DNA of 64,000 nucleotides. Origin: an uncultured Bacteroidota bacterium. Its GTDB lineage: Bacteria; Bacteroidota; Bacteroidia; AKYH767-A; 2013-40CM-41-45. Shown one piece after another: positions 9,989-39,783 of this stretch (the first letter of the stretch is position 1; every line of letters starts with the position of its first letter). The position numbers and the translations under genes were made by a program. The notes below the pieces were generated by a model that was given only the letters and a program-made list of their open reading frames with translations, was not told where the DNA came from and did not search any database. The DNA lies in NCBI GenBank assembly GCA_963775555.1, contig CAVZJJ010000002.1:647397-711396 (forward strand), given 5' to 3'.

Positions 9989-10144
9989 TTGTAAATTTAA
10001 CGAATGTATGGAATCGGAAGTGGATTTTATCTTCCGTGTTCTGAAGGACAGGATTGCCTTCCGGAAAATTCCCCCCTCAATATCGCTGGTGCAAGCCCCT
10101 CCCGCAAAATATTTTTACCTTCGCCTTTCAAAATTCTGTATAAC

Positions 10145-17230: not shown

Positions 17231-17304
17231 GGGCCCTTAGCTCATTCGGTTAGAGCAACAGACTCATAATCTGTGGGTGGTTGGTTCGATTCCAACAGGG
17301 CCCA
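17231..17304 (+). tRNA. tRNA with CAT anticodon, most likely tRNA-Ile2 (lysidine-modified)
   Basis: Acceptor stem GGGCCCT/AGGGCCC-A; D arm; anticodon stem ACAGA-CTCATAA-TCTGT; T loop GGTTCGATTCC; lacks initiator-Met features. Confidence 0.93.
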
Positions 17305-17308
17305 CTTT
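17292..17308 (+). repeat. left att core (tRNA 3' end)
   Basis: CCAACAGGGCCCACTTT, identical at 39678. Confidence 0.9.
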
Positions 17309-17482
17309 ATTTATTACATAAAGTACAGTAAATCAGTATATTAATGTTAATTTTGATATGATCGACTGAAACTATACTGAAACAAATCTGTGTTAAAGTA
17401 TAGTTCCGGCTTGGTTTAAATTATGTGAAACTACATGTTCTACCAATTTTACCCTTAAAGATTTCAATAGAAAGTATTGGCA

Positions 17483-18544: not shown

Positions 18545-19495
18545 CCTGAAGGAGGGCAAATTTGTATCAATAATTTGTTACTCAGAATATTTAATTTAAG
18601 CCTTTAATGTTGCATTATAGCTTAAGCGAAGGGGGTCGGTTTCCAGAAATCGATTTTGCTTTTGCAAATATGCCCCCAATAAGTAAGTACTAAGTTTGCA
18701 TTGAGATGCGACCACTGGTTTTACTTCTTTTGAAGTTTTATATAAGAATTTTTAGTAAACCGGAACAATAGGCTATAATCCGATCCATTTTCAGGACTTG
18801 TTTTGACTAAAAAATATTTATGGAAAAAAGAAGGTCATTTTGTTAGGTAAATTAGGTGTTAATTTCGTTTTTTTCTTTGAATTTTAGATATTTTGGGGCT
18901 TTTTGTTGGACAAATTAACTGAAAAAAACAGAAAGGTCAATTATTTCAGAAAAGAGTTGATTTTGTCTAAAAAAGCAAGATGTTAGTACGAAGGTTCTTA
19001 ATAGTGGTTATAAACCTAAGTTCTCAAACAGACCGACGCGTTTTTTTTTGAATCTCCAATTCAACTTGATCAGGATCGACAATTTCTGTACTTGAGAATT
19101 ATCCATTTAGATTTGGAAAAGGATATATTTGATTATTCAAATTCAAAAAGCCTTTATAAAATTCATGACACCAATTATAAGCAAATGAAATATTCCCTTC
19201 TTATAAGTTTGATATTCTATGCAACAACGTCTTGCTTTGCTCAATCAAATGCGGATCTCTATAATAGTGGAAACAATAAAGCCAAACGACAAGATTTTTT
19301 GGGTGCCATCTCTGACTACAACTTGGCAATTATTATTGACCCTCTTGACCCAAGCTGTTATCTTAATGTTTATTCCAGCGAAGCTGACCCCCATTCCGGG
19401 CATCCTGACCCCTCTGTAAAAGTTAATTCCGGCATATTGACCCCACCTTTTTGTTCTGATAGGATGAGGTTATTTCAATGAACGATGCACTGTTT

Positions 19496-20221
19496 TTATT
19501 TCTTTTTTCTAAGTGATTCGCCGTTTAGTTCGACGCGGTGCGCATTGGAAACGATCCGATCCAATATTGCATCGGCTAATGTCGGTTCACCGATTATTTC
19601 ATACCAGATCGATGATGGTATTTGTGATGCAATAATAATAGATTTTCTGCCATGACGATCTTCGACGATTTCCAATAAATCCAACCGTGCCATTTCATCG
19701 GGTTTTTGCAGGCCAAAATCATCCAAAATCAACAGATCGTGCTTTGCGATGTGCTGCATCTGCCTTCGGTGGGTTCCATCCAGTCTGCCTAAACGAAGCG
19801 ATTGATATAATTTCTGTGTGTTATGATAAGTGACCTTGAAGCCCAACTGACAGCACTGATGACCAATGGCTGATGCTATATGACTTTTGCCCACTCCGGT
19901 AGGGCCTGTGATGATCAGATTTTCGGATTTTTCTATCCAGGCACACGTACTGATTTTTGCCAGGAAGTCAGCCGTCAGATTTCTTTTGGGATCGGGTGAG
20001 ATCTCTGCCAGAGACGATGTGTAACGGAAGCGTGCGCTCCTTGTCAACCGCTCTATTTTTCTGTTATTCCTATCATCCCATTCCTGTTGAAGTAGTAGCG
20101 ATAATAATTGATCGTTTGCAAGGGCATCGGTTTTCTTTCCTTGCACGATTCCTTCCAGCGCAGCCTGCATGCCATACAACCTGAGGTTTTGCATTAATTC
20201 AATGGATTTTTGATAACTCAT
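19496..20221 (-). CDS. istB: IS21 helper ATPase IstB
   Basis: GPTGVGKS Walker A, LLILDDFG Walker B, ADAILDRIV. Confidence 0.95.
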   Translation of the reverse strand: MSYQKSIELMQNLRLYGMQAALEGIVQGKKTDALANDQLLSLLLQQEWDDRNNRKIERLTRSARFRYTSSLAEISPDPKRNLTADFLAKISTCAWIEKSENLIITGPTGVGKSHIASAIGHQCCQLGFKVTYHNTQKLYQSLRLGRLDGTHRRQMQHIAKHDLLILDDFGLQKPDEMARLDLLEIVEDRHGRKSIIIASQIPSSIWYEIIGEPTLADAILDRIVSNAHRVELNGESLRKKK

Positions 20222-20247
20222 GAGTTCAGTTTTTAAGGGTTAAACAA

Positions 20248-21785
20248 TTATTGATAAGTGGATGAGCCACGTATGTTTTCATGCTTTGGCAATGGTTTTT
20301 CTTCAGGGAAAAATGTTCTGTTTGCATATTTACCCGTTGCGATGCGGACAATTTGTGAGTACGTGCAGACGTTGAACTCCAAAGCGATCTGGCAGGCATC
20401 GATCAATGTTTGAACTGATGTCTTTGAGGCAAGAGATAAAATGCCCTGACAGGTTTTATAGGCCTGCTCTGCGTACTTACTTTTCTTTAGTACCGTTTCG
20501 ATTACCTGTAAAACCGGCTCACCATAGGTCGCTGCACGTTGTCGGAGCAGATCGGCATTCATGCCTTTCAGTACAATCTGATGATGCGAGGGAAGGTGTT
20601 GTTCCTCGGTAATATATTTCCTTGTGGAGTTGGAGACATGCGTAGCAACACATTGCCCGCGATAATAAATATTGACTACTGTCGCTGTAATTACAACCTG
20701 TACCTTTTGACCAATCAACCGGTAAGGGACACTGTAGTATTTTTTCTGACTGCTTACATAAACATGGCAGTTTTGCTGAACGGTTAATAGAAGGTGCTTT
20801 TTAAGCTCATATGGATTGGAAGGCAACGGTTTTAACAATGATCGCTCATCCCTCTCCAGCATTACACTGCGAGAACATCCGTATTGTTTCATCACCCGGT
20901 TATTCAATTGCTTTACTGCCTCCAAGAGCGCCTGATTTAACTCCTGCAAGCTGCGGAATGTGATTTTTCGTAAAGGAGCAAACAAACGCTGATACGTGAT
21001 TCGAACCGATACCTCAACTTTGGCTTTATCCCTTGGCTTTCGTGGTCTGGCCGGAAAAACGGTCATACCGTAGTGATTAGCCAGATCCAGGAACAGAGAG
21101 TTAATGACCGGTTCATATCGATCGGCAAGAGTAACTGCTGATTTTAAATTATCAGGAACCACAGCCTGTGTGCAGCCACCGATTTGTTCAATCACCGATA
21201 CAGTTGCATGTAAGACATCGTGGAGTTTTTGTGAGTGTACGGCCTGTACAGCGATGTAATTACTGTAGCCCAGTGTGCCAACAAATATTTCGCATTCGAT
21301 CTTTAACCCCGTATCATCGATGTAATACATTTTATCCCCTGTAAAATCCAGGAACAGTTTATCTCCGGGCAAGGCTCTTTTATCAGTACCGCGTTTTGAC
21401 TGCGATCATACAATTGCAGGTAATAACAAAATCGGGAGTATTGATATCCTTGAGGATATTCCCTTTTGTATTCTTCCCAAAGCAGTTGACGGGTAACATG
21501 TCGCTTTTTCTCTTCTTGGTGAAAATATTCCAGGCGTGATAATAAATCACAATGTCGTTCCTGTTCGTACTTTACTGGAGTTCGCAAGAGATGTTCCAGC
21601 TGAGGATCTTCAAGGCTCAGAGCCTCTTCGAGACTTATTCCTTTGCTTTCAAGATTACGCAAATACCCCTTTATCGTGTTGCGTGCCACACCCATCTGGC
21701 GTGAGATTGCTTTCAGTTTATATGATTGACTGATTAAGCGTAAGATCTGTTTTAACTGACTCATAAGAATGGTTGTTCCGGACAT
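20248..21785 (-). CDS. istA: IS21 transposase IstA (one frameshift near 21372)
   Basis: N-terminal HTH and YSRFC in the first ORF; PGDKLFLDF, VPDNLKSAV and PRDKAKVE in the second. Confidence 0.9.
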
Positions 21786-22660
21786 AGTTCGCGTGATTTG
21801 ATGGTTCGTACATCAAATCACTTAGAGAAAAAACCATCATCCAAATGGAATTAAAAGGCGGGGGTCAGTATGCCGGAATCAAATGTTAATGCCGGGGTCA
21901 GTATGCCGGAATGATGAAATTTCGGGGGGTCAGGATGCCGGAATAGAATTCTCCGCAGGGGTCAGCATGCCCGGAACAGGGGGTCAGGATCGCTGGAATG
22001 AGGGGTCAGGATGCGATGGAGTAAACAATCTTAATAGAGGTCATGCAAAATCTGATCTTGGAGATTATAGAGGTGCTATAGTTGACTACAACAAGAGTAT
22101 ATCTATTGACCCCAAAGAAGCATCTGCATTCTTTCTACGTGGATATGCAAAATCTAATATTGGTGACAACCAAGGTGCGATTATTGATTTCACTAGTGCC
22201 TTAGAACTTAACCCGGATTATGAAGGAGCTTATATCAGTCGTGGACTCTGTAAGAGCCTTTTTGGAGACTTCATAGGATCAATTGCGGATTTGAACTTAG
22301 CAATTAAACTCAATCCTCACTCGGCTTTTGCTTTTCATGCCAGAGGAATTTCAAAGGCTCGACTAAATGATTATCGAGGCTCGTTGCAGGATTATAATCG
22401 AGCTATTGAGATTGATCCAGAATATGCAGATGCTTATATGGGTCGAGGTATTGTAAAAATTACATTAGGGGAGAAAGAAGGTGGTTGTTTGGATTTAAGC
22501 AAGGCTGGCGAACTGGGGGTTGCCAAAGCATATGATGAGATTAAAAAGTCTTGTTACTAATCTAATATATTAGGGCGTTAAATTCAGATTGAAATCATTT
22601 GTTATCTACTTTATTCCGAATGAATATTTACCTAACTTAAGGCATTGATATTTATTTTGT

Positions 22661-22987
22661 TCATTTATTTTTAATATTCAAATCAATAGTTTGTTTTGTT
22701 CCAGTAGGCTCACCTCCGTCAATTTGTTGCAATTTCCCCCATGAGTTAAAATAAAAAAACTTTGTGTCGGTGCGAGCCCCAGTCCACGCGTCGTAATCAT
22801 TCATTCTATAAATAGTCCATCCATTGCCGATAGACTCCAATTTTGCTTTTCTTCCAGCCTTTTCTTTAAATTCTTGAATTGACATGCCAATGTATGCACT
22901 ATTGCTAACATGTGAAGCTTGGTTATAAGTGCCTGCACAACTATACAATAGCAATTGACATATAAAAATTGAAAGAGCTTTTTTCAT
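22661..22987 (-). CDS. small lipoprotein
   Basis: MKK plus hydrophobic stretch plus LYSC lipobox; IGMSIQEF. Confidence 0.75.
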   Translation of the reverse strand: MKKALSIFICQLLLYSCAGTYNQASHVSNSAYIGMSIQEFKEKAGRKAKLESIGNGWTIYRMNDYDAWTGARTDTKFFYFNSWGKLQQIDGGEPTGTKQTIDLNIKNK

Positions 22988-23098
22988 GGATAGGAATTTA
23001 ATATTATTAGTGCTTTTTTATAAGACTATTGAAACTGGGAACTATTGTTAAAGCTAACATTTAAATTTATATTTAAACGGATTTAATTTTAATAGAAC

Positions 23099-23968
23099 TC
23101 AACCTTTACTCAACTGGCTCCATAACTGAATAGAATTTTGTAAGGCAGTAGGATATGTTTTGAATGTGATCTCAGCAGACGTATAAGTTTTTGTGTAAAA
23201 TAATATGGAATTTGCAACTAGCATTTTTATAACTTTAATGCATAGGTTAATATTGGCGTTATTAAACTCATTTTTCTTATTAAGCGATAGTTGACTCAAC
23301 TGCAAGACACTTAAATACTCGGTATGAGCATAGATAGAGGATAGAGAGTACAAATTAAAAAAAAGTTTCTTATTCAACCCGCATTCCGTAATTAGGTTAT
23401 GCCATGAAATAACTCGAGGTAGACCATGCAATTTCAGGGCGTTTAATTTCCGGCCATTCAAGTGACTATATTCAGGCATGTTTTTGATTTCTTGCAAAAT
23501 ATTGTCAACAAGAACTTTCTCAGATTCTTTCAATTTAATTATCTCCGGCTCTGAATTGCTTTCAAAATTTTGTCTTGAAATTAATCCTGAAACTTCCCAC
23601 AGTTTGTATCTAAAAATCTGTTCCTCTTCGTCAAGGTTGTTATTATATATGTAGCACAATGTTAAATAGTTTTCAATCAAAGCTCTTGTCAAAATGAAAA
23701 TACTTGAACTATCCACAATGTGAATTTTATCGTTCCGTTGATACAATCCGAACTCAAAACCTTGTGATATGTGTAGAATCGAATGTGAGTTGTATGTAAT
23801 CTTACTGACCATTGTTTGGGACAAAAATCTCCACTTAGGGACATGAACTTTTGAGTCTGCTACAGATTCTTGTAGTCCAGCAAGAACTTCAATTATTTCT
23901 TTTGCCGAGACATTTTCGGCTTCTTTTACTGAATTAAAAATTGCTTCAAAGCTATCAGGAATTTTCAT
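23099..23968 (-). CDS. DUF5677-like helical protein
   Basis: ILTRALIENY and YSLSSIYAH motifs; AT-rich island ORF. Confidence 0.6.
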   Translation of the reverse strand: MKIPDSFEAIFNSVKEAENVSAKEIIEVLAGLQESVADSKVHVPKWRFLSQTMVSKITYNSHSILHISQGFEFGLYQRNDKIHIVDSSSIFILTRALIENYLTLCYIYNNNLDEEEQIFRYKLWEVSGLISRQNFESNSEPEIIKLKESEKVLVDNILQEIKNMPEYSHLNGRKLNALKLHGLPRVISWHNLITECGLNKKLFFNLYSLSSIYAHTEYLSVLQLSQLSLNKKNEFNNANINLCIKVIKMLVANSILFYTKTYTSAEITFKTYPTALQNSIQLWSQLSKG

Positions 23969-23995
23969 GGGTTCATCTTATCATACAATTCATAA

Positions 23996-26900
23996 TTAAA
24001 AATCATGCTGGATAGAATCAATCTCTTTCATTATTCGATCAGTTTCTGAAAGCGCCACAATAATTTTCTGATAGTGCTGTATATCCTCATACGAAAGCAC
24101 ACTGTCCTTCCGGTCTTTCAGCCATTTCTGCGCAGGCTGATATCCACCGATGTAAAACTCCCACGCAACTCGAGGAACGCCGGAAAAGTACTGTGTTTCA
24201 TTGATCCAGACTGAACCATCTTTATATTTCAATTTCCCGACTTTGTTATCTCCGTCCTCGGGATACTTCGTGATGAATTTATCTACCACCGGACTTTCTA
24301 ATAGGTGGATTTGTCTCAGTTCTCCACCCAATTTTACTAATTGCCAAAATGTGTCTTTGTCCTCCGGATAGGGCACTCTTGGGAAATCTATTTTTAGGAA
24401 CTCTTTGTATTTTTCTCGGTACGTTGAAGAGTGAAGCACAGCGTAGATATAGTCTAAAATGTCAAGAGGTGCAAAAGTGTTCTTGGTTGGTTCTTTTTCG
24501 TTGGAAAAAGATAAACCTAATTTCTCTGCTATCTGATTTACAATGACAGATTCTAAGTTTGGCTTTCTTCCAGAAAATTTATCAATGGTTTGTTGACTAC
24601 TTATTTCAGGATACAAATAGAGGGGGAATACTTGATTAGCTTCTCGACTTGTAGTTGAAGTGACGCAATCATTCGCTGGAAGTTTGGTAATAAAGCAGTG
24701 ACGAAATCCTTCTACGGCCTGTTGTTTTGAATTTAATAAGCAGATGTTGTCCTTGTTTAATACGTGTTGCAATAATTCCTTTCGCGGTCTATCACATATA
24801 GCTTTATTCAAGATAGCATACTGATTATCAAAAGGACGATAAGAAGTTAAGGAGATAAATGACTTCAGGTTCTTTTCACCTCTCAAAGCTTCTCTTTGTT
24901 TGCTAAGTACCCAATCATTAGATTCGTTAATATGATACTTGCTTTTTAATTTGGTGTCATCAATATTCAAATCAATAAAATCATTTAATCTTCTTGTTAA
25001 TTGGTTTAATTCCACATCAAGTGCAAATTTGTCTCGATGTGTTTGGTAGCCTAAGACATTAATTTTCATCAAATCATTCAACATAAATCCTAGATCATAT
25101 TGCTTTTGAACAGTCCGATCTTTTTCTACAAAAAAGTAATTTGGAGAAGTGTTTGTTAGTTTCGTAAATAGAATGCTGTTAAGTGAATTGTTAATAAGAA
25201 AATCATATTTTAATTCTCGTTTTCCATACATTTCAAAATGAAATACTTTAGCCAACTCGTTGCTTTTTTTCTTTCCGGTTTTTACAAATACATTTATAGA
25301 AACACCCTGCATAATGTCAAATACATTCACATCAGGACTGCCATCTGGTGCGGTTTCCTTTTTTTTGGCATTCCCATGTAGGTCGATTGTATAAATTTTA
25401 TCATAGGTTTTTAATAAGTTCCATCGCATGCCTCTAAATGTAGGATTATCTAAAAACCCGTGTGGATTAATAAAGGCTAAAATTCCGGAGCTATTTTTTT
25501 CTATAAAATATTGTCCATAGCGTAAGAATTTTACATAATCATCGTTAATCCATTTTGGATTTCGTTCTTTCAATTTCTCCTTGCCACCTGGTTCTTTTTT
25601 ATAATCTTCCATCAAGGTCATAATCCATTCGCCCTTGTTCGCACTTTCGCCACTATAAGGCGGATTGCCCATAATAACCATTACTGGAGTATCCCTTTTC
25701 ACATGATTCGCCTCATTCGCCTCATTACTCAGCCATGATGCAAAGAGAGTTCCGGTTTCAGGATGATGTTCTTCAAGTGAGTTTGTGAGATATACTCGAA
25801 GACGTTGATCTTTTTTGGGTTTGAATCCTGTTTCAGTCAGAAGAAGATCTAATTTCAAATGAGCCATAGCATATGATGCCATCAGAATTTCAAAACCATT
25901 GAGCCGTGGAATCAAATGATCTTCGACATAATTATTCCAAATGCCTTTTTGTCCTTCAAACTTTGAGTGAATTTGTTTTATAACTTCTGCGAGGAAAGTT
26001 CCTGTGCCGGTTGCAGGGTCAAGAATCTGAACTTTATGTACTTCCTTCTCCACTTTCTTTCCGTTTACAATAACTTTGATTTTTGTTTTGCTTGTATCAG
26101 CCAAACCTTCTTTTAAATCAAATTCTGATTTTAGAATATCATCTACCGCACGGACAATAAAATTCACTACTGGTTCAGGAGTATACCATACTCCACGACT
26201 TTTCCTGAGTTTAGGATCATATTCCGAAAGAAAGGTTTCGTAGAAGTGAATGATCGGGTCGGTTTGTTGTGTTGCCTGTCCGAAGTTTTTCAATAATGCA
26301 GAAACATCAGTTGCCCGGAATATGTCTGCTAGATCATCCACTATCCATTTAATCCGGTCGTCGAGATCATATCCGGCTATGTACTGAAATAGTTTCCGCA
26401 GGAATGGGTTTGATTTTGGAATCAATTCTGCTGCCTCTTGCCTTGAAAATGTGTCGAGGTTCGGGTCGTGCAATCTTGCCGCGAACATTCCATAGGCGAG
26501 AGTCTGAGCGTATATATCAGCAAACTCCTTGGCATCTATGTCATGAATGAGAATCTGCTGAAATGCCTTTAGCTGCTCTTGTAGCGTATTATCTCCAGGT
26601 TCTTGTGCTTCCGGATGTTCAGGGTCGTAAACCTTTGTTAATGCCTTTTCAATTACCTCCGCTAACAATTTCGCCTTAGCTGCCATCATCTCCGCCAACT
26701 TTTTCGGAGACTTGATTGTCTGGCCTGTCTGGGTGGCAAAGCTTTTAATGTGATCTGTAAAGGAGTCAAAGTTCTGAGATAGGGGAGTGACCTTTTTTCC
26801 GTCTATCTGAGCGAGTTCAATTTTAAAAAGTAACTCACCATCCCGGTAAAAATGAAAATCGATGTAGTTTGTAAAGACGATGTTTCCGAGTGAGGCTTTG

Positions 26901-27163
26901 TATCTGTCGAATTGCTCCTTGTAATTCTTACTATCAAGGTTTGCCCCTAAATCCTTTGCCTCAATATATCCCAGCGGTATATTTTTCTTAGTCAGGATAT
27001 AGTCAGGCGCACCACAGGCGACTCTGGAAGGCTCATTGGTCACCATGACTCCGGTTAACATAGATTCCAATAAGGTCTGTAAATCGCCCCGGAAAGTATG
27101 CTCTGTAGACAGTCCGGTCTTATATCGGTTACCTATTGTTTTAATGTATTCGTCAAGGATCAT
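23996..27163 (-). CDS. single-chain restriction-modification enzyme (nuclease + N6-adenine MTase + type ISP-like specificity domain)
   Basis: PDY...YIEAK nuclease motif, GVWYTP, ILDPATGTGTF (motif I), NPPY (motif IV), C-terminal IGGYQPAQKWLKDRK. Confidence 0.88.
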   Translation of the reverse strand: MILDEYIKTIGNRYKTGLSTEHTFRGDLQTLLESMLTGVMVTNEPSRVACGAPDYILTKKNIPLGYIEAKDLGANLDSKNYKEQFDRYKASLGNIVFTNYIDFHFYRDGELLFKIELAQIDGKKVTPLSQNFDSFTDHIKSFATQTGQTIKSPKKLAEMMAAKAKLLAEVIEKALTKVYDPEHPEAQEPGDNTLQEQLKAFQQILIHDIDAKEFADIYAQTLAYGMFAARLHDPNLDTFSRQEAAELIPKSNPFLRKLFQYIAGYDLDDRIKWIVDDLADIFRATDVSALLKNFGQATQQTDPIIHFYETFLSEYDPKLRKSRGVWYTPEPVVNFIVRAVDDILKSEFDLKEGLADTSKTKIKVIVNGKKVEKEVHKVQILDPATGTGTFLAEVIKQIHSKFEGQKGIWNNYVEDHLIPRLNGFEILMASYAMAHLKLDLLLTETGFKPKKDQRLRVYLTNSLEEHHPETGTLFASWLSNEANEANHVKRDTPVMVIMGNPPYSGESANKGEWIMTLMEDYKKEPGGKEKLKERNPKWINDDYVKFLRYGQYFIEKNSSGILAFINPHGFLDNPTFRGMRWNLLKTYDKIYTIDLHGNAKKKETAPDGSPDVNVFDIMQGVSINVFVKTGKKKSNELAKVFHFEMYGKRELKYDFLINNSLNSILFTKLTNTSPNYFFVEKDRTVQKQYDLGFMLNDLMKINVLGYQTHRDKFALDVELNQLTRRLNDFIDLNIDDTKLKSKYHINESNDWVLSKQREALRGEKNLKSFISLTSYRPFDNQYAILNKAICDRPRKELLQHVLNKDNICLLNSKQQAVEGFRHCFITKLPANDCVTSTTSREANQVFPLYLYPEISSQQTIDKFSGRKPNLESVIVNQIAEKLGLSFSNEKEPTKNTFAPLDILDYIYAVLHSSTYREKYKEFLKIDFPRVPYPEDKDTFWQLVKLGGELRQIHLLESPVVDKFITKYPEDGDNKVGKLKYKDGSVWINETQYFSGVPRVAWEFYIGGYQPAQKWLKDRKDSVLSYEDIQHYQKIIVALSETDRIMKEIDSIQHDF

Positions 27164-27246
27164 AAATTTTCAATTGCAAATCGTAAATATCAAAGAAAGG
27201 AAATTTGAATGAATAAACTCCTGTCTGTCAGATGAAATCTTATCTG

Positions 27247-28209
27247 TTACACCTTAATCCACGCCTCAATTTTATCCACTAATTTCCCCTCCAATTCTTC
27301 TGCTGATTTATAAATGATCTGCTGAAGCTGTTTAATATCAAAATGTGCATTAGGAAATTCAGCTTCTGAACAAAGATAAATAACTGGTTTTCCGAGCCCG
27401 AGTGCAAAACCACTCTCAAAGTAAACTCCATGTCGGTGGAAACTGAAATCTGAAATACAAAATTTTGCCTTTTTAATACTTGCAAATATTCCATCTGGAA
27501 TCGACTTGTCACTTGACAAGTGTTCCTCGTCGATAAAAATAAATTTAAAGCCGGTTTTTGATAAAGCCCTCTTAATCGCCTCCCGTACAATCTTTGTTTC
27601 CTCCAGAAATGCCATAGCAATGAAACACTCATTTGAGTTTATACCTTCTAAACTAAGTTCAACAACTTTATTAAGCCCTGCATGTGTAATTGTAAGGGCA
27701 ACATTGGTCAATCCATTGCCATTGTCTATTAACCTAATTAAACCACTTTCTTCCAACCCCTTTAAATAGAAAAAGCATTCAGTTGAACTTTGAAAATAAT
27801 TAATAGTATAGAATTTATCGTCCTGCAAATTAATAGTAATTCGTTGCCCATCCTCCTTCTGTAGTTTGAACAAATTAAGCAGCAAATTATCAAGTCTTTC
27901 TCCAGCATTCTTTGGAAAGTAAATGGTACTCAAATAATCTTCGACAACTAATGTAACACTATCAACTGGAGGCGGAAAACCATCGGCATGACTGCTGGAA
28001 ACAACAAAGGATCGATCTGGCCATTTACCATTTGCAATGAGGCCCTTTATAATGTGAGAAGGTGTGCTTATGCTTATTTCTGATTTACACTGGCTGCAAA
28101 TAAACACCTTAACTTCCTTTTCAGCAACCTTTAAAGAATAGCCAATAAAATTTGTATACCTTTCTATTTTAACATCCTGGCCAGTTAAAATACATTTAAA
28201 TTCACTCAT
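27247..28209 (-). CDS. protein with C-terminal nucleoside 2-deoxyribosyltransferase/TIR-like domain
   Basis: CFIAMAF, ISDFS, GVYFESGFALGLGKPVI and HFDI motifs; N-terminal Cys residues (CxxC) and wHTH-like middle. Confidence 0.72.
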   Translation of the reverse strand: MSEFKCILTGQDVKIERYTNFIGYSLKVAEKEVKVFICSQCKSEISISTPSHIIKGLIANGKWPDRSFVVSSSHADGFPPPVDSVTLVVEDYLSTIYFPKNAGERLDNLLLNLFKLQKEDGQRITINLQDDKFYTINYFQSSTECFFYLKGLEESGLIRLIDNGNGLTNVALTITHAGLNKVVELSLEGINSNECFIAMAFLEETKIVREAIKRALSKTGFKFIFIDEEHLSSDKSIPDGIFASIKKAKFCISDFSFHRHGVYFESGFALGLGKPVIYLCSEAEFPNAHFDIKQLQQIIYKSAEELEGKLVDKIEAWIKV

Positions 28210-28237
28210 ACAATAAGTTTAAGGTGATGGTTGCCGT

Positions 28238-28393
28238 TGCGCCTAACGAAGAAGGGATTAAAAAAGTAAAAAAAAGAAGGGTTTAGAAGCACAACTGTTC
28301 GTTTACCTGCACTGTTTGTTAGAATCACAACTCTTTGTTTACCTCTCAAAGCCCTTCTTTTTTTTATTTCTTTTAATCTTTGTGTTATACGCA
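28238..28393 (-). repeat. attC-like imperfect palindrome
   Basis: Minus strand TGCGTATAAC...GTTAGGCGCA outer cores; ~30-bp inverted arms at 28256-28284 and 28348-28378; two 36-bp-period repeats in the loop. Confidence 0.7.
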
Positions 28394-28434
28394 TACTCTA
28401 CTCTGCATTCATGGTGTCATCTCTGCTGTAGTTC

Positions 28435-31400
28435 TCATTTTATGAAATATTTTATATAGAGTTTTGCAAGTTCAGCATCAAATATTTCTTTCAATGCTTT
28501 TTCAATTTTCTTTTTCAATGCAGAAATATTTGCGAATCGTTTATAGAAAATATCTCTATCACCAATTAGATGAAGCCACTCAACTTTGAAGTTTGTGTAG
28601 TCAAACTTCTCAGGGTTAAGATAGAACTTCATGTAATCAACAAGATTTGTGAACGTTTCAAGGCGTTTATCATCACTTTTCACATTCATGTTATAAATGA
28701 AAATCATTGCATTGATGAAAACAAAACTTTGAAATTTTGGTTTGCCAGCATTCATCGTGTAACTGCCGTTACCTTTTGTGTTGTTTATTTCTGAAATAAA
28801 TTGCTCAAAGTATTTGTTGAAATCAATTATGTTTTTAAAAGCTGCATTGGTGTATAAATCACTATTGAATTTCTTATCAAGTTTTTCAGTGATTTTGTTT
28901 TTCAATTCATCCTTTATGGCATTGTCAGAAATAGCCCACAAATAAACCTGAGTATCTGTTTTTCTATCAGAATGTTTTGATAGAGAAAGAATATTAAAAA
29001 TCAATTCTCTGTCAGAGATTCCGTCAAAGTTATTTTCTTTAAAGATGAAAGCAATGGTGCGAAGCAATGCGCCATCATTGTAAAAATTCAACTTTGCAAG
29101 AGCTGATTTTAAAAGTGCTATTAAGTTGTCTTTAGAAAAAAGTTGATTATTTTTATACATGAATGCACTTAGGAAATCTATTTCCTTTCTGTGCAAGAAA
29201 GTTTCATGTTGAATGAAGTCAAGAAGATTTTGAACAAGGTCAGGTGCTTTTTCCTTAGTGAGATTCATTCCTGAAAGCAAAAGGAAAATGTTATTGAATT
29301 TTTTACGGCACTTATCTTCAAAAAATTCGCTGCTCATTTGATTCCTTGTAAGTTTATCGGCATGAGTGGTTCTGCCAAAGAATTTATTTTCTTCAAAAAA
29401 TGATTTGAGAAAATTATTCACTGTTTCAAGAATTAGGGGTAAACTCGGTTCATTAAAAACAATTTTATTGATTTCGTATTTCTGCGTTATCGCTTTTACT
29501 TCTTCGGCATCGCAATAAAACACAACCACATCAAAGAATAATTTGTTGAACTCTTTTATTTTCTCTTTGTAATCATCATTTGTTGCAAAACTGATTAAAA
29601 GTGCTTCAACTCCTTTTTTGCAAACTCTTGAAAAATTGATAAACTCATCTGCAACAATGTAATTATTGGTATAAAAAGAAATGATTTTGTAGAGCTCAAT
29701 TTCTATTGCTTGCGGATAGAAAGGACCACTTGTCCACCTCGTGCCAGTTTTATATCCATCATAGACATTCAGAACCTTGTCGTAAATTTCATTGATTTCT
29801 TTTTCTGCTTTGTGCAAGACATCATCATCACGAATCATTTTAAGTAACTCATATTCCTTTTCACCCATGTAAGGAACTTGTGAAAGCAGTTTATCAAAGT
29901 CCATATTATCCAACTTCCGAACAATCCTTTTCTTTTTTTCTTCATTTAAAGTTCTTTCAAAGAAATTAATAAGGTTGCGAAGAGTTTTGATGTTATGTTT
30001 TGCGATATAGTAAGAGAAATATTTCCCTGCCTGCCATGCTTTGTTTGCGACTTCTTCAAACAATCTAAATGACTGACTAAAATTACCGATTTTGTAATTC
30101 GCATAAGCAAGTTCAAGGTCGGATTGAATGCTTGATGTTTCGTTAATCGTTAAAACCAATGTGTCAGCAATGACACTACTTAACTCAAAACGATTTAAAC
30201 GGCAATTAAAACAGTTGCACTTCGGTGAGGTTTTAACTTTTAATCTCTTTGATGTTTCAGACCAACCATAGTTACCAAATGAATCAGGAGAGTCGTTCTG
30301 TCTGAATATGTGAAAAATCAAACTGAAATTCAATGCAAGGATTATCTCTCTCAATTTACGTTCAAACTCTTTTATTTCTGCGGCTGAAAGATTCAAGTCT
30401 GGTGGCGGTTTGAATCTTACTTCCTCATCAATATATTCAATTTGATTAAAGAATAAATCATAAAGGTTGCGGTTTGTTAAGACAAGGGAATATGATTCAT
30501 AATCGTGAGCATAGTGTTTTGAAGCATTGAAAGGATAAAGGTTAGCCACAAAATCAGGAGTAAGTGATTTAAATTCTGAAAATCTGCTAAGTGATAAATG
30601 AATTTGGTCTATAACATTTTTCTCAGTTAACGCTTCATTGAACTTGTCATAAGTAGAAATGAAAACTAAGAAGTCCAAAAGATACTGTCCTCTTTCTGAT
30701 AAGTTTTCCCCTTTTATAAAATGAACTTGATTTAAAGCATTATGCCCTTTTAAGTAATCAGTAATGTAGTTTGTTCCATCTCCAATTTTTGCATCAAAGT
30801 AATTCAATACATTAATTCCTTTGTTCTTGAAATATTCTCGCTGTGTTGGATGCAAATATTCATCTACTGAAAGCAAGTAGGCATTTTGAAATTCCTTTCC
30901 TAAAATGTTTCTCACAGTTTGAACAATCATTTTTAGATTGATGTCAGAAAAACCATAGCCAACGAACAGAACAACCTTTGAGGCAAAAACAGATTTCAGA
31001 AATGCTTCAATCAAAGGATGATTCAAACTGTAATCAAGGTAATCATCTTCCTTTAAAACAATGTCGGTATCGTTCAAGTCACCATGAACTTTGACAAGAA
31101 GATTTGTATTAAGAGCATAAGGAAATTCTTTGTCTTTTGAAACAACGGAAAATGGAAGTGATTCCTTTTTGATTACCTGTTCAAGCAAATCATCATAATT
31201 TGTTGTTAAGATGTGCTCAGGATTCAACTTGAAAACCCACTCATGAATTTCATTGTATTTAACTTTCTTGTGTTTAAGAACTGCACGAACTTTATCAATG
31301 TATTCTTTTTGCTGCCTTTCGTTGTAATACATCTGAGCAATTCGCAAATAGTCCGCTTCATTGGGTGGGATTGCAATTTCAGATTTCATTTCATCAATTA

Positions 31401-31521
31401 AAGCTCCCCAGTTCGGAATACCTGCATCAACGGAAATACCTGCACCTGCAAACACAACCAATTTGTTTGTGTCAATTGCATTGCGAATGTTTTTTATGTC
31501 GGTAAAAAATTTCTTGCTCAT
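28435..31521 (-). CDS. DSR2-like defence-associated sirtuin (SIR2 NADase plus long helical C-terminus)
   Basis: FAGAGIS, YLRIAQMYY, ILTTNYD, KVHGD, VLKEDDY, LFVGYGFSD; 1028 aa, similar layout to B. subtilis DSR2. Confidence 0.82.
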   Translation of the reverse strand: MSKKFFTDIKNIRNAIDTNKLVVFAGAGISVDAGIPNWGALIDEMKSEIAIPPNEADYLRIAQMYYNERQQKEYIDKVRAVLKHKKVKYNEIHEWVFKLNPEHILTTNYDDLLEQVIKKESLPFSVVSKDKEFPYALNTNLLVKVHGDLNDTDIVLKEDDYLDYSLNHPLIEAFLKSVFASKVVLFVGYGFSDINLKMIVQTVRNILGKEFQNAYLLSVDEYLHPTQREYFKNKGINVLNYFDAKIGDGTNYITDYLKGHNALNQVHFIKGENLSERGQYLLDFLVFISTYDKFNEALTEKNVIDQIHLSLSRFSEFKSLTPDFVANLYPFNASKHYAHDYESYSLVLTNRNLYDLFFNQIEYIDEEVRFKPPPDLNLSAAEIKEFERKLREIILALNFSLIFHIFRQNDSPDSFGNYGWSETSKRLKVKTSPKCNCFNCRLNRFELSSVIADTLVLTINETSSIQSDLELAYANYKIGNFSQSFRLFEEVANKAWQAGKYFSYYIAKHNIKTLRNLINFFERTLNEEKKKRIVRKLDNMDFDKLLSQVPYMGEKEYELLKMIRDDDVLHKAEKEINEIYDKVLNVYDGYKTGTRWTSGPFYPQAIEIELYKIISFYTNNYIVADEFINFSRVCKKGVEALLISFATNDDYKEKIKEFNKLFFDVVVFYCDAEEVKAITQKYEINKIVFNEPSLPLILETVNNFLKSFFEENKFFGRTTHADKLTRNQMSSEFFEDKCRKKFNNIFLLLSGMNLTKEKAPDLVQNLLDFIQHETFLHRKEIDFLSAFMYKNNQLFSKDNLIALLKSALAKLNFYNDGALLRTIAFIFKENNFDGISDRELIFNILSLSKHSDRKTDTQVYLWAISDNAIKDELKNKITEKLDKKFNSDLYTNAAFKNIIDFNKYFEQFISEINNTKGNGSYTMNAGKPKFQSFVFINAMIFIYNMNVKSDDKRLETFTNLVDYMKFYLNPEKFDYTNFKVEWLHLIGDRDIFYKRFANISALKKKIEKALKEIFDAELAKLYIKYFIK

Positions 31522-31627
31522 TTAGCTGCTTCAATGATTTTTATTTTTGCTGCTGCGGTCAAGTTTCAAGTTTGCACTACCGTTCAATCGGAGCGAAAGA
31601 GTTGGGTATAACATTTATTATCAGAAA

Positions 31628-31635
31628 CAAATTTA
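31628..31635 (-). promoter_or_regulatory. Bacteroidota -7 promoter box upstream of the defence gene run
   Basis: TAAATTTG (TAnnTTTG consensus) on minus strand ~16 bp before the GTTATAC core; no clear -33 box. Confidence 0.5.
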
Positions 31636-32281
31636 AAATTTATTTCGTGAAGCCGAAAAGTAATCTGCAAAACTACCGATGGTTTGGAGAACTTCTGCTT
31701 TCGTGTTATTAGGATTGGATTGCTTCGCAGGCTTGTTACTTGGGGAAATCAGTGGTATAGCCTATGGTTTATAGCTTACAGGTTTCGCTGGCTCACACAC
31801 ATTGAAAGTGCTATAGTCTATCACTCACAGGTTCCTGTTTGAGGTTCTATGAGTAAAAAGAGTGGCAGGAAAAACACAGGATTCCTGCTGGATTTTGTCG
31901 GATAAAGACGGAAGTACATCGAAAACAGACAAAAATCACTATTCTGGATATCTTTTACTTAGCTCCTGTAAGCGGTTCAGGTAAGGTTCAAATGTCCAGT
32001 TGTTAGGGTTGGCCTTCAATATAGCAAGGTGGCCAGTAATCATTTTCGGAATGTCTACTATTTCGGTATATGGATTCAGAAAAATGGAGTGGGAAGGTAA
32101 TGCTATTCCGGTAAAGAAGGTCTCCAGATCCATAATATCCTGTTTTAATCCTCCGGCCCGTGGTGTTTCGGGGTTGATAAAAGAATATGTTGGTTCAAAG
32201 TGTTTCAGCTCGACCATTGGCTGAACACTTGGGAGCTTTACGGTAGGTTGTAGTTTTAAAAAAACACCCAAATCTTTGAAT

Positions 32282-33401
32282 TGCCGTGTTCAACCAATAA
32301 GTGCAATTTAAAGATTTAAACTTTCACCTTGGGACTTTTAATTGTCCCAGGTGAAAGTTAAGCTGAGAAGCTTCATCTTTGGATTGCTTATGTCAAAAAA
32401 CTACACCCATCTCAACTCTGAACAAAGATATCAGATTGAAGCCTTATTAAAAAGCGGAATCGCTCAAAAGGATATTGCGAAAATTGTAAATAAATCGCCA
32501 TCCACGATAAGTCGAGAACTTAAACGGAATATACCAAAACGTGGAAGAGGAGCTTTGGTTTACACAGCTGAAAATGCACAACGGAAAACGGATCATCGGC
32601 ATCAAATCAAAATGAAAAAAGAAAGATTTACCGATGAAATGAAAGTGTGGACGCGTCTCTGGATGAAGAGTATAAAATTCAGTCCGGAATTAATTCATGT
32701 CGTTGGCAAAAATGAGTTAGGGGATTTTGTCAGCCACGAGACCATTTACAAGTGGATTTGGCGTTGTAAGCAAAGTAATTGTAAGGAAGATAGACAAGAC
32801 AAGAAACTGTATATGCACTTAGCACATGGACGTAGAAGAAGAAAGCGCGGATTAAGAAGAGATAGCCGGGGTATTATTCCAAACCGAGTGTCTATTGAAA
32901 ATCGTCCGAAAATCGTAGATAAAAGAAAGCGCTTGGGAGATTTTGAAGTAGATCTGATGATGGGAAAAAATCATCAGGGAGCTTTGCTTGTAATGACGGA
33001 TCGGGCATCTCTGAAAACCAAACTCACAAGGTTAGCCGGGAAAGACAGCATCATAATAAAGCGCGAAATTAAACGTAGATTAATCTCATTAAAGGGAATT
33101 GTTAAAACACTTACATTTGACAACGATAAGGCATTTAGTAAACATGAATCGATAGGAAAATCGCTGAATGCTACTACCTATTTTACCCGGCCTTATACCT
33201 CACAAGATAAAGGAACTGTAGAAAACAGAATAGGATTAATCCGCAGATTCTTCCCAAAGAAAACAGACCTATTGAAAGTACCTGACATAGATGTTCAAAT
33301 AGTAGAATCAATAATTAATAACAGACCAGTAAGAAAATTTAATTATCAAACACCTAACCAAGTCTTCTCACAAAAAATTGCACTTATTACTTGAACTTAC
33401 A
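32282..33401 (+). mobile_element. IS30-family element, copy 1 (1120 bp)
   Basis: TG...CA ends sharing GTTCAAnnAATAAGTGCAATTT; 2-bp AT duplication. Confidence 0.93.
32390..33394 (+). CDS. IS30 transposase
   Basis: STISRELKRN HTH, GDFEVD, TFDNDKAF, KGTVEN, NNRPVR. Confidence 0.95.
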   Translation: MSKNYTHLNSEQRYQIEALLKSGIAQKDIAKIVNKSPSTISRELKRNIPKRGRGALVYTAENAQRKTDHRHQIKMKKERFTDEMKVWTRLWMKSIKFSPELIHVVGKNELGDFVSHETIYKWIWRCKQSNCKEDRQDKKLYMHLAHGRRRRKRGLRRDSRGIIPNRVSIENRPKIVDKRKRLGDFEVDLMMGKNHQGALLVMTDRASLKTKLTRLAGKDSIIIKREIKRRLISLKGIVKTLTFDNDKAFSKHESIGKSLNATTYFTRPYTSQDKGTVENRIGLIRRFFPKKTDLLKVPDIDVQIVESIINNRPVRKFNYQTPNQVFSQKIALIT

Positions 33402-36368: not shown

Positions 36369-37488
36369 TGTAAGTTCAAGTAATAAGTGCAATTTTTTGT
36401 GAGAAGACTTGGTTAGGTGTTTGATAATTAAATTTTCTTACTGGTCTGTTATTAATTATTGATTCTACTATTTGAACATCTATGTCAGGTACTTTCAATA
36501 GGTCTGTTTTCTTTGGGAAGAATCTGCGGATTAATCCTATTCTGTTTTCTACAGTTCCTTTATCTTGTGAGGTATAAGGCCGGGTAAAATAGGTAGTAGC
36601 ATTCAGCGATTTTCCTATCGATTCATGTTTACTAAATGCCTTATCGTTGTCAAATGTAAGTGTTTTAACAATTCCCTTTAATGAGATTAATCTACGTTTA
36701 ATTTCGCGCTTTATTATGATGCTGTCTTTCCCGGCTAACCTTGTGAGTTTGGTTTTCAGAGATGCCCGATCCGTCATTACAAGCAAAGCTCCCTGATGAT
36801 TTTTTCCCATCATCAGATCTACTTCAAAATCTCCCAAGCGCTTTCTTTTATCTACGATTTTCGGACGATTTTCAATAGACACTCGGTTTGGAATAATACC
36901 CCGGCTATCTCTTCTTAATCCGCGCTTTCTTCTTCTACGTCCATGTGCTAAGTGCATATACAGTTTCTTGTCTTGTCTATCTTCCTTACAATTACTTTGC
37001 TTACAACGCCAAATCCACTTGTAAATGGTCTCGTGGCTGACAAAATCCCCTAACTCATTTTTGCCAACGACATGAATTAATTCCGGACTGAATTTTATAC
37101 TCTTCATCCAGAGACGCGTCCACACTTTCATTTCATCGGTAAATCTTTCTTTTTTCATTTTGATTTGATGCCGATGATCCGTTTTCCGTTGTGCATTTTC
37201 AGCTGTGTAAACCAAAGCTCCTCTTCCACGTTTTGGTATATTCCGTTTAAGTTCTCGACTTATCGTGGATGGCGATTTATTTACAATTTTCGCAATATCC
37301 TTTTGAGCGATTCCGCTTTTTAATAAGGCTTCAATCTGATATCTTTGTTCAGAGTTGAGATGGGTGTAGTTTTTTGACATAAGCAATCCAAAGATGAAGC
37401 TTCTCAGCTTAACTTTCACCTGGGACAATTAAAAGTCCCAAGGTGAAAGTTTAAATCTTTAAATTGCACTTATTGGTTGAACACGGCA
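36369..37488 (-). mobile_element. IS30-family element, copy 2 (1120 bp, inverted relative to copy 1)
   Basis: Same ends and identical transposase protein; 2-bp AG duplication. Confidence 0.93.
36376..37380 (-). CDS. IS30 transposase
   Basis: Protein identical to 32390-33394. Confidence 0.95.
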   Translation of the reverse strand: MSKNYTHLNSEQRYQIEALLKSGIAQKDIAKIVNKSPSTISRELKRNIPKRGRGALVYTAENAQRKTDHRHQIKMKKERFTDEMKVWTRLWMKSIKFSPELIHVVGKNELGDFVSHETIYKWIWRCKQSNCKEDRQDKKLYMHLAHGRRRRKRGLRRDSRGIIPNRVSIENRPKIVDKRKRLGDFEVDLMMGKNHQGALLVMTDRASLKTKLTRLAGKDSIIIKREIKRRLISLKGIVKTLTFDNDKAFSKHESIGKSLNATTYFTRPYTSQDKGTVENRIGLIRRFFPKKTDLLKVPDIDVQIVESIINNRPVRKFNYQTPNQVFSQKIALIT

Positions 37489-38278: not shown

Positions 38279-39496
38279 TTAATATTTTAAAATTGAGGCG
38301 TGAGTATCATCAAGTGTCTGGGTGTTGAAGGAGTTCAAATACTGTTCGGTGACTTGTTTACTGCTATGCCCAAGTAGTTCTGAGTTCTTTTGAAGTTCTA
38401 TTCCACTCTGTTTTGCCAGATTTGCAAAAGAATGTCTCGCCACATGACTGCTTAGGTTTTTTTTGATCCCAGCTTTTTTAGCAATTTGTTTCAAATACTT
38501 ATTGATTAGGGCCTCTTGCCTACTTATTTCGTTATGCCTCTTATGAGGATCTTTCATATCTGCAAAAGAATTGATGATAGGGAATATATAACCTTTAGTT
38601 TTTAATTTACCTCCCCTGTAATGGTTGAGAATTTTTAATGACTTGGCAAAGACTTTCACAGACATTAATTTGCCTGTTTTGTTCATTCTGTATTCTATTC
38701 GCTCGTTAATTAGATTGCTCCACTCCAATTCCATTAGGTCTCCGATGCGAATACCGGCACAATAGAATGAAAACAAGAAGTAGTTTTTACAATGCCAAAT
38801 CAATGAGTCAGGTTCAAGAATTAGGGCTTCAAGACTTTTTATTTCTTTAACGGTTAATTTCTCTTTACTCCCAGGCTCGGTTTGAAGCTTAAAATTGAAG
38901 AAAGGGTTTCTTTCTTGAGTTGCTATTCCTTCATTAATTGCCTGATAAAACAAGGCTTTTATAGATTTTAAATTGCTGTGAATAGTATTCTTTTTATTTC
39001 CAAGTTTTGTAAGGTGATGTTTATAGTCTGTTAAAAAGGTAACTGTAAGGTCTTCAAATAAGAGGTGTTTCCCTTTGTGGTAATCCCTTAGCTTGCCTAC
39101 TATTGATTTATATTTTTTATATGAAGAAATTCTCCCCTCCTCCAAGGTCATTTGAATTTTTTTTTCGGCAAATTGAAAGAAATCCGTTGTATATCCCTTG
39201 TGGTGGGCTAAAATTGCCGTCATTGTAGGATTAGGTGTATCTTTCTCAATCTCAGAAAGGGATTGCTCGACCTCCTTTAACTTTCTTTTCAACCGATTGT
39301 TTAATTGTGAGTGTTGGGGATTGCTGGTACGGACCCAGTTGCCATATTTGGCTTTTTTATTAAATTCGCTTGCCCTTAGAAAGACACCAGTTGAGATTCG
39401 GCGATGTCTTCTGTTCTGAGTGATACGAATGAGTATGCCGGTGGTTTTATCCTCTTTAGGCTTAGAGTTTAGTTCTAAATTGAATGTAGTAGTCAT
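38279..39496 (-). CDS. tyrosine recombinase / integrase with Bacteroidota arm-binding and SAM-like domains
   Basis: ILIRITQNR...ISTG arm domain; catalytic GIRIGD, K, HVARHSFA, LLGH and Y intact. Confidence 0.93.
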   Translation of the reverse strand: MTTTFNLELNSKPKEDKTTGILIRITQNRRHRRISTGVFLRASEFNKKAKYGNWVRTSNPQHSQLNNRLKRKLKEVEQSLSEIEKDTPNPTMTAILAHHKGYTTDFFQFAEKKIQMTLEEGRISSYKKYKSIVGKLRDYHKGKHLLFEDLTVTFLTDYKHHLTKLGNKKNTIHSNLKSIKALFYQAINEGIATQERNPFFNFKLQTEPGSKEKLTVKEIKSLEALILEPDSLIWHCKNYFLFSFYCAGIRIGDLMELEWSNLINERIEYRMNKTGKLMSVKVFAKSLKILNHYRGGKLKTKGYIFPIINSFADMKDPHKRHNEISRQEALINKYLKQIAKKAGIKKNLSSHVARHSFANLAKQSGIELQKNSELLGHSSKQVTEQYLNSFNTQTLDDTHASILKY

Positions 39497-39677
39497 GATT
39501 CTTATTTTAATATCCAAAGCAAAGATAACTAACTTGAGTACTACTGTAACAATACTGAAACAAAATGTAAATTCAAATAATTTTGGATGCCTTAAAATAC
39601 TAATACAAGTGCTTGTAAACCAAAGAGAATAATGAAATGTCGGGTATTTGAAATTATTCCAATATCTCATTTGTAGG

Positions 39678-39694
39678 CCAACAGGGCCCACTTT
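39678..39694 (+). repeat. right att core (duplicated tRNA 3' end)
   Basis: CCAACAGGGCCCACTTT, identical to 17292-17308. Confidence 0.9.
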
Positions 39695-39783
39695 TTTTCT
39701 TTCGACTATTTTCATGTTCCTGATCCAATTGAATTAGACCGTTCCGGATCAGTTTTCTGAGATATGAAACCGGTGCCGCCGGT

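Follow-up and report, generated by a model that had tools for sequence, protein, structure and literature searches.

The window analysed here, a stretch of 64,000 nucleotides (nt) from an uncultured Bacteroidota bacterium, contains on its minus strand a 3365-bp unit that carries one gene, for a large SIR2-type protein resembling the defence protein DSR2, and that ends in a long imperfect hairpin. Taken as a recombination unit it occupies 28247-31611: it starts with the TT of a G|TT motif (31612/31611), and its last base, at 28247, is the G of the closing core GTTAGGC. The minus strand reads, in order, GTTATACCCA (31612-31603), a 90-nt leader (31522-31611) with the motifs TTATACCCAAC..TTTCGCTCCGATTGAAC..GTGCAAACTTGAAAC, an open reading frame (ORF) at 31521-28435, TGCGTATAAC (28393-28384), an A/T-rich stem and GTTAGGCGCA (28247-28238). 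A preliminary description of this DNA had proposed an integron-like cassette with one gene; the three boundary strings and coordinates that it quoted are exact, and the ORF of 1028 residues (28435-31521) is indeed the sole one between the ends. The half-sites R'' (28393-28384) and R' (28247-28238) enclose the long imperfect stem of an attC-like site, assigned to a family termed A (28238-28393, minus strand), and the ~105 nt to the left of the junction (31609-31713, minus strand) form an attI-like region with no hairpin. It is very probable that 31611-28247 of the minus strand is one gene cassette of a Bacteroidota integron-like system, composed of the leader, the DSR2-type gene and the attC-like site of ~150 nt. 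In what follows the genome that carries the window (four contigs, assembly 81.6% complete) is denoted G000, related genomes carry other G-numbers and excerpted loci carry L-numbers.

The hairpin and its family

The arms of the hairpin, at 28260-28287 and 28346-28373, are 28 nt long, 86% complementary and 58 nt apart. Folded as DNA, the interval 28230-28400 reaches -23.8 kcal/mol on the minus strand (z -2.70, with 2 of 200 shuffles as good) and -23.1 kcal/mol on the plus strand (z -2.87, with 0 of 200), so that both strands of the ~155-nt imperfect hairpin described at 28238-28393 fold better than shuffled sequence. The cores GTATAAC ... GTTAGGC fit the attC scheme RYYYAAC / GTTRRRY, and a scan of the whole window for TAAC...GTT duplexes returned this as its single strong attC-like site. 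Rfam scans of 27000-32400 and of the second site-A locus of the genome gave only chance-level microRNA and small RNA matches.

Of the 54 genomes covered from the same family, 33 contain site A; they represent 8 of 10 genera, and the copies, often several per genome, stand in register on one strand. On contig C3 of G035 the alternation of site and ORF is repeated five times, on one strand throughout, and the expectation that similar hairpins would surround single genes elsewhere is thus borne out by co-oriented arrays in related genomes. Among 26 unique near-full-length copies, conservation begins at ..ATAAC and ends at ..CTTCGTTA. An alignment of 21 copies accommodates a stem of 25 pairs, in which 93.4% of cells are paired and 10 pairs show compensatory changes; this structure was supplied by hand and then counted, RNAalifold alone giving the central 12 pairs only. 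The covariation exceeds that of 500 of 500 shuffles and of all slid controls, with 87% of cells paired compared with at most 59% when partners are slid. The site in the window is therefore a member of a structured family, whose copies separate the cassettes of unidirectional arrays.

A second site-A copy in G000 (C4:2819888-2820089) has identical outer motifs and a different but compensated stem interior. It belongs to a mini-array of three cassettes (sites B, A, B) at C4:2818185-2824095 (L009 8185-14095), directly downstream of frr at the end of rplM-rpsI-rpsB-tsf-pyrH-frr, in which three unknown ORFs are separated by sites A and B. The loop of this copy holds a nested near-perfect hairpin of ~65 nt (C4:2819970-2820035) that ends in a T run, bringing the site to 215 nt, and the mini-array is followed by vsr, a dcm-type methylase gene and an EcoRII-type endonuclease gene. 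Family B sites are ~126 nt long and number four copies in G000. In types A, B and D alike, GAAAT faces ACTTC with an A-C mismatch, and the 3' side of the spacer is the longer one; an extra base in the 5' arm occurs in types A and D, not in B, and is missing from 2 of the 21 aligned site-A copies.

A hairpin downstream of a gene could be a mere terminator, or a repeat of the repetitive extragenic palindromic (REP) or miniature inverted-repeat transposable element (MITE) kind, in which case the gene would be ordinary island cargo. The site does lie between a stop codon and the next start, a G+C-rich clamp is followed by a T run, and two G000 copies stand in intergenic DNA. However, such an origin leaves unexplained why conservation ends exactly at TAAC and GTT, why the sites keep a fixed orientation in arrays and why attI junctions lie beside a recombinase gene. 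It equally fails to account for the match between R'' and the bases after the preceding site, and it is contradicted by the array identities given below; this explanation is considered highly improbable.

Cassette arrays and the crossover point

A scan of all of G000 for TAAC..GTT duplexes gave 573 matches at or below -12 kcal and 148 merged matches at or below -15 kcal, with a dense run at C4:1788462-1868168. This run corresponds to an array of ~80 kb (C4:1788590-1868164) with 58 motif-anchored sites, every one on the minus strand: 54 belong to type D and 4 to type B. The crossover point was assessed by means of the reverse complement of the 10-nt R'', at the 46 array sites whose inner core is a canonical ..AAC and that are preceded by another site. 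Compared with the 10 nt that start at the GTT after the preceding site, this complement is identical at 10/10 positions in 34 of 46 cases and at 9/10 or better in 43 (mean 9.59). Compared with the site's own following R', the corresponding counts are 5 and 8 of 46 (mean 6.80), a value in line with random partners (2000 draws; mean 6.75, sd 0.22, maximum 7.46). When tandem duplicates are collapsed, 21 of 30 distinct pairs still match at 10/10 and 27 at 9/10 or better, and the existence of 30 distinct pairs disfavours slippage or tandem duplication as the sole source of the identity between R'' and the preceding R'. The site-A array of G035:C3 scores 9, 10, 5 and 10 of 10 when an insert of ~115 bp is read through, three of its four cassettes obeying the rule, and the array of the single-contig genome G040 follows it as well. 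The pairing of R'' with the cassette's own start, originally proposed for the window, is thus a property of the arrays in all three genomes. Given that R'' is the complement of the first bases of its own cassette, the units appear to be cut and joined at G|TT, by way of a circular form.

For the cassette in the window, the complement of R'' matches the cassette start at 9/10 and the following GTTAGGCGCA at 8/10. Against the 58 unrelated R' of the G000 array, a score of at least 9/10 is reached once and a score of at least 8/10 in 13 of 58 cases, so the match to the start is unusual and the match to the following half-site is background. The inverse core therefore pairs better with the cassette's own start than with the closing GTTAGGC, in agreement with the preliminary description.

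The upstream boundary of the cassette was located by homology. In BLAST searches the matches to the left side end at query positions 332-334 and those to the right side begin at 327-329, where query 329 is the G at 31612; leader matches from G031, G035, G007, G013 and G008 begin at 31612-31614. Matches to attI-like regions end at 31607-31609 and matches to cassette leaders begin at G 31612, and the breaks in homology fall exactly at 31612, at the GTT core where the boundary had been placed. The leader itself is conserved among the leaders that follow site-A hairpins in arrays, and resembles the sequences downstream of site A in L029, L051, L049, L045 and others. At the left junction of the cassette, an attI-like sequence thus passes into a cassette leader precisely at G|TT.

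Some further features of leaders and arrays were observed. The leaders of the window (31563-31575), L024, L026, L029, L034 and L045 share GTGCTAACTT(T)GAAAC ~40 nt past the core. The consensus of the Bacteroidota -7 promoter element is TAnnTTTG; the leader motif resembles this element, and cassettes may accordingly be equipped with their own promoters. An identical 549-bp unit (a 133-nt site and 416 nt) is repeated in tandem runs at G000:C4:1815525-1836879, which indicates duplicated small cassettes. An insertion sequence (IS) with a 522-residue DDE transposase (DDE_Tnp_1_6/DUF772) occupies the same position in 12 type-D sites (G000:C4:1789134-1856080), right after TAACATTGG and with ATTGG on both sides; L096 (C4:1829700-1832450) is an example. 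From its position this looks like an attC-targeting IS, a habit analogous to that of the IS1111-attC elements. Three consecutive site-A sites in L051 (G035:C3; about 905-1022, 2165-2282 and 3312-3424) are interrupted exactly at their GCG|TT crossover point by a second kind of insert, ~115 bp long, whose ends are inverted (CAGACTGGGCAAAAAC...), and the R' half-site resumes after it; this insert is MITE-like and targets the recombination core.

The attI-like region

Over 104 nt, the 105-nt sequence left of G 31612 shares 84% identity with G052:C88:10573-10676; it is also homologous to the stretch on another contig of that genome, G052:C53, between the stop codon of a 323-residue cassette-type recombinase and a G|TT junction. 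All of these alignments end at AAATG|TTA. The region folds with z of -0.9 to -2.0, no better than shuffles; it therefore reads as an attI rather than an attC, and the candidate explanation of a degenerate attC was rejected. With regard to the insertion target, the earlier proposal that the cassette sits in a separate island stands, but its left flank is no arbitrary target, being attI-like and homologous to a recombinase-downstream stretch in the congeneric G052. In G052:C88 (L141, about 8555-11738) the attI-like piece lies between AbiEi/AbiEii genes and a gene for a 649-residue DUF4209 protein, which is followed by a PIN-domain gene; a second copy of the first ~17 nt of the piece follows the PIN gene.

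An array-adjacent recombinase

It had been suggested that a recombinase acting in trans might be found by looking for site arrays near a tyrosine recombinase, and such a candidate heads the ~80-kb array, on a contig other than that of the window. The gene (G000 C4:1868747-1869790) encodes a tyrosine recombinase of 347 residues and is co-oriented with the cassettes. The array begins ~95 nt past its stop codon, with a first junction ..ACAAG|TTAGCGGTT that matches the R'' of the first cassette at 10/10. Homologs occur in 25 of 54 genomes of the family, many at contig ends, and many of them have a ..G|TTA.. junction and a typical cassette start 90-130 nt downstream. In G040 the cassette array likewise runs downstream of the Xer-like gene.

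In NCBIfam the G000 enzyme scores best against XerA_Arch, 'tyrosine recombinase/integron integrase' (213 bits, cut-off 220), and against TIGR02249 (201 bits, split over two stretches; cut-off 265); among solved structures Pyrococcus XerA (4a8e) is the closest, with 155 bits over a single stretch. Aligned to the integron integrase VchIntIA (2a3v), it has 20 residues opposite chain residues 182-243, a stretch of 62 residues, which indicates that the IntI-specific domain is absent; it also has an N-terminal extension of ~70 residues. Given that the recombinase family lacks this extra domain, integron-like is the fitting word. A second form of the recombinase, of 529-565 residues, was also seen in L084 (G009:C16), L070-L078 and others, often at contig ends; it shares ~40% identity with the G000 enzyme and has an N-terminal extension of ~270 residues that gives no Pfam match.

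Bacteroidota records contain many members of the family, with names such as integrase/XerD and 'tyrosine recombinase/integron integrase'. Relatives were found in 34 of 400 other Bacteroidota genomes sampled evenly across the phylum (E <= 1e-70), and within at most 1.5 kb downstream of them chains of R''/R' identity reach 10/10 in L149 and L168 and 9/10 in L145. For this sample the identity chains were relied on and not the site counts of a crude duplex scan.

An alternative is that the sites are ordinary attC sites of a canonical integron, served by a true IntI that is missing from the assemblies, and that the Xer-like gene is a bystander. The cores do fit RYYYAAC/GTTRRRY and the G|TT logic is classical, the G000 assembly is incomplete, and NCBIfam itself associates relatives of the enzyme with integron integrases. 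Nevertheless, TIGR02249 exceeds its cut-off neither in G000 nor in five array-bearing genomes nor in any of 146 genomes of the order (0/146), among them the single-contig G040 and some with few contigs. Furthermore, the distance between the Xer-like gene and the first junction is ~90-130 nt in several genera, and the G040 array is downstream of this gene. A hidden canonical IntI is thus regarded as improbable.

Judged by the genomes scanned, the system is not an integron sensu stricto: attC-type sites, the G|TT rule, arrays and an attI-like sequence are all present, and no integrase of the IntI clade was found.

The DSR2-like gene

The 1028-residue protein matches Pfam SIR2_2 (PF13289; E 1.3e-23). 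In PADLOC it matches the N-termini of ThsA and Dsr1, and among the matches listed there is no Dsr2. By sequence its best solved relative is DSR2 (E 8e-40), over residues 9-269 only. N108 and H146 are conserved in at least 90% of 37 homologs and align by offset with the catalytic pair of DSR2; of that pair, H171 is named in PDB titles, and the other residue is N133. An AlphaFold2 model was built from 36 homologs (21-92% identity to the protein in the window over the whole alignment) and has a mean predicted local distance difference test (pLDDT) score of 81.7, with residues 107-175, which belong to the SIR2 domain, below 50. In a Foldseek search of the PDB all listed top matches, to rank 49, are DSR2 chains, and the full-length fold alignments span 1092-1138 columns with TM scores of 0.53-0.63, E-values of 1e-21 to 1e-17 and 18-19% identity. 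The label DSR2-like, first given from the sequence alone, is thus matched by the predicted fold over the full length. A SIR2 domain with the conserved Asn/His (sequence) and a large helical C-terminal region of DSR2 architecture (model) are both present, and the assignment of the cassette gene as a DSR2-type NADase defence gene is supported by this predicted structure. The protein is of the same length class as DSR2 (defence-associated sirtuin 2 of Bacillus subtilis) and has the same fold over about 1100 columns, but the identity is low and the C-terminal domain of the cassette protein is undetectable by sequence. The trigger of DSR2 is a phage tail tube protein.

No homolog of the SIR2 gene was found at E <= 1e-20 in the 53 other genomes of the family. 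Two metagenome loci (L090 and L091) encode proteins that are 78% and 73% identical; in these, the gene is followed by a B-like site and then by a Schlafen/AlbA_2 ORF with a canonical B site.

The host element

The cassette lies within an integrative element of ~22.4 kb (17292-39694) that is low in G+C across its length. At each end of the element stands a 17-nt direct repeat, CCAACAGGGCCCACTTT: the copy at 17292-17308 is the 3' end of the tRNA-Met gene (17231-17305) in which the element is inserted, and the other is at 39678-39694. A tyrosine integrase with Arm-DNA-bind_5, SAM_5 and Phage_integrase domains is encoded at one end (38279-39715, minus strand). Both the claim that the cassette resides in a separate integrative element and the claim that the window has no IntI-type gene are upheld, the island integrase being the sole tyrosine recombinase of the window; it is only 27% identical to the cassette recombinase of G052:C53 and is of a different type. 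Elements in a Ferruginibacter metagenome-assembled genome (MAG), in Solitalea agri and in another Bacteroidetes MAG carry DUF3987 and DUF6371-DUF6965 genes that share 65-80% identity with those of the element described here. L126 and L127 have DUF6371 and DUF6965 in a single ORF; in the window this gene is split by an IS30-family copy (32342-33394, plus strand; Pfam HTH_38/rve), and a second copy with identical Pfam scores is at 36376-37428 on the minus strand. The cargo at 17477-27163 is defence-rich, with an AbiC-like gene (17477-18544), a Type IIG/ISP restriction-modification gene (23996-27163) and a DUF5677 gene, amid which an IS21 pair (19496-21785) is found.

Directly after the attC-like site, on the minus strand, is a TIR-like gene (27247-28209; PADLOC TIR effector, E 5.7e-8). 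Its homolog in G040, 39% identical, is a bona fide array cassette, and the gene may be the former next cassette, whose own site has been lost. Its stop region (GTGTAAC AGATAAGATTT) was considered as the truncated start of a site A and dropped, the complement matching the gene's own start at only 5/10.

Discussion

The interpretation of the locus as a mobile defence cassette of a Bacteroidota integron-like system largely holds, on the strength of the site family, the crossover rule and the junction at G|TT. Nevertheless, a number of observations weigh against it. At the cassette itself, the match between R'' and the start stops at 9/10, short of 10/10, and neither a circular junction nor a polymorphism has been observed; the circle junction is predicted to read CTTCG|TTATACCC and the empty junction ..AATAAATG|TTAGGCGCAAC, and only two sequencing runs, both from soil metagenomes, contained 5% of the sampled words. 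No empty site was found among the related islands, three loci retrieved from 25 pattern matches, which share the backbone and carry unrelated cargo after the DUF6371-DUF6965 gene. In L090 and L091 the nucleotide similarity to the cassette is confined to the ORF (31525-28432), the site that follows is of a different type and no site lies upstream. With regard to the flanks, no hairpin site follows the TIR-like gene in the window, and no recombinase gene or remnant lies beside the attI-like sequence there. The copy of this sequence in G052:C88 precedes the DUF4209 gene without a visible attC-like site, and the attI-like piece could be a promoter module that travels with genes. With regard to the enzyme, the recombinase of G052:C53, whose attI resembles that of the window, is only 42% identical to its closest G000 relative, the array recombinase. 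The recombinases also lack the IntI domain known to contact extrahelical bases, and it is by adjacency that they are connected to the arrays. In the crude duplex scan of the phylum sample (-13.5 kcal), upstream controls on both strands gave sites at 17 of 29 loci, the same as the downstream flanks (17 of 29).

Some of these observations raise the possibility that a block reaching from the attI-like region through the first cassette into the start of the following one was moved into the island by illegitimate, homologous or IS-mediated recombination, and that the cassette was perhaps never mobile here. The attI-like 105 nt begin at the position of the recombinase stop in G052:C53, yet the window contains no trace of that gene; G052:C88 has the same orphan piece in a different defence context; the TIR-like gene starts like a cassette (GTTAGGCGCAAC) and lacks a site of its own; and IS30 and IS21 copies lie within the island. 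However, orphan attI sites would still be usable in trans, the join at G|TT is clean with both flanks intact up to the junction, and the outer ends of such a block are unmarked. Capture of a block is therefore thought unlikely, if far from negligible. We infer instead that the adjacent recombinase is the actor, and that the cassette entered by site-specific insertion.

For such an insertion it is suggested that the recombinase would fold one strand of the site and recognise the GAAAT/ACTTC A-C mismatch, the frequent extra base of the 5' arm and the asymmetric spacer. It would then excise the cassette as a circle and insert it into an attI-like site. The target in the window would be an orphan attI-like site in the cargo of the 22.4-kb tRNA-Met element, which would carry the defence gene between hosts, and the recombinase would act in trans, the gene at C4:1868747-1869790 being the candidate in G000.

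Among known systems the arrays are most readily compared with sedentary chromosomal integrons such as the superintegron of Vibrio cholerae, whose Vibrio cholerae repeat (VCR) attC sites are imperfect hairpins of this look with cores ..TAAC/GTTA... The two are alike in their long, unidirectional and mostly single-ORF arrays, in imperfect hairpin sites of 120-150 nt, in the crossover at G|TT with R'' complementing the cassette's own start, in an attI beside the recombinase gene, and in having cassettes duplicated in tandem as well as insertion elements directed at the sites. In contrast to those integrons, the Bacteroidota recombinase is XerA-like, with 20 residues in place of the 62-residue stretch of VchIntIA and with the N-terminal extension of ~70 residues, and is co-oriented with the cassettes; the cassettes have a conserved leader, and site families A, B and D coexist in one genome (G000). 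Xer recombinases act on double-stranded dif-type sites, whereas the array recombinase, whose best solved relative is the XerA of Pyrococcus, is linked to folded hairpin sites and an integron-type crossover logic.

The window, with one site and no integrase, is also like the clusters of attC sites lacking integrases (CALIN) of IntegronFinder, and by the rules given in the available text of that work the arrays, with an integrase that lacks the IntI signature, would probably be called CALIN (10.1101/2022.02.28.482270). Unlike CALIN, the arrays are adjoined by a dedicated recombinase, so that they are probably not decayed integrons. Anti-phage genes as single cassettes are known from Vibrio chromosomal integrons, described as defence biobanks (10.1101/2024.07.02.601686), and from the phage-defence cassettes of mobile integrons (10.1101/2024.07.02.601719), in both cases, as far as the available text of each goes, in Pseudomonadota with canonical IntI; the terms 'SIR2' and 'DSR' are absent from the main text of the former. 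Compared with these, the cassette described here is likewise a single anti-phage gene, but it is unusually large (3.4 kb) and resides in an integrative element of a Bacteroidota genome.

In the available text of IntegronFinder 2.0 (10.1101/2022.02.28.482270), Bacteroidetes earlier had only In0 elements and one complete integron is given, in Salinibacter ruber. The Vibrio defence-biobank preprint (10.1101/2024.07.02.601686), in the portion available, places Bacteroidota among clades previously without integrons, and two papers by Ghaly, likewise in the portions available, list Bacteroidota among phyla with integrons. No description of such Bacteroidota arrays or of an IntI-less integron was found in the literature covered, supplementary tables (which may list CALINs) and subscription journals lying outside its scope. 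It is tentatively suggested, as quite possible though somewhat short of probable, that Bacteroidota have their own, so far undescribed, integron lineage. In such a lineage a XerA-like recombinase without the IntI insertion, but extended at its N-terminus, would recombine folded attC-like hairpins at G|TT, arrays would reach at least 58 cassettes, and orphan attI sites would let single defence cassettes shuttle between arrays and islands.

Integrons are regarded as rare or absent in Bacteroidota, yet here a whole family of genomes has large arrays with the crossover signature, and the recombinase at the head of these arrays lacks the defining feature of IntI. Because current integron finders require the IntI signature, systems of this kind fall into a blind spot for them. 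If the recombinase is active, the range of integron-type gene capture would be wider than thought, and the system would be a natural experiment on the protein features needed to recombine folded DNA. Should the suggestion of a separate Bacteroidota lineage be true, the recombination of single-strand hairpins that is credited to the IntI-specific domain would either have evolved twice or predate that domain. For the bacteria themselves, an active recombinase would mean that full-size defence systems, such as the DSR2-type gene in its 3.4-kb unit, circulate as cassettes and are loaded onto integrative elements.

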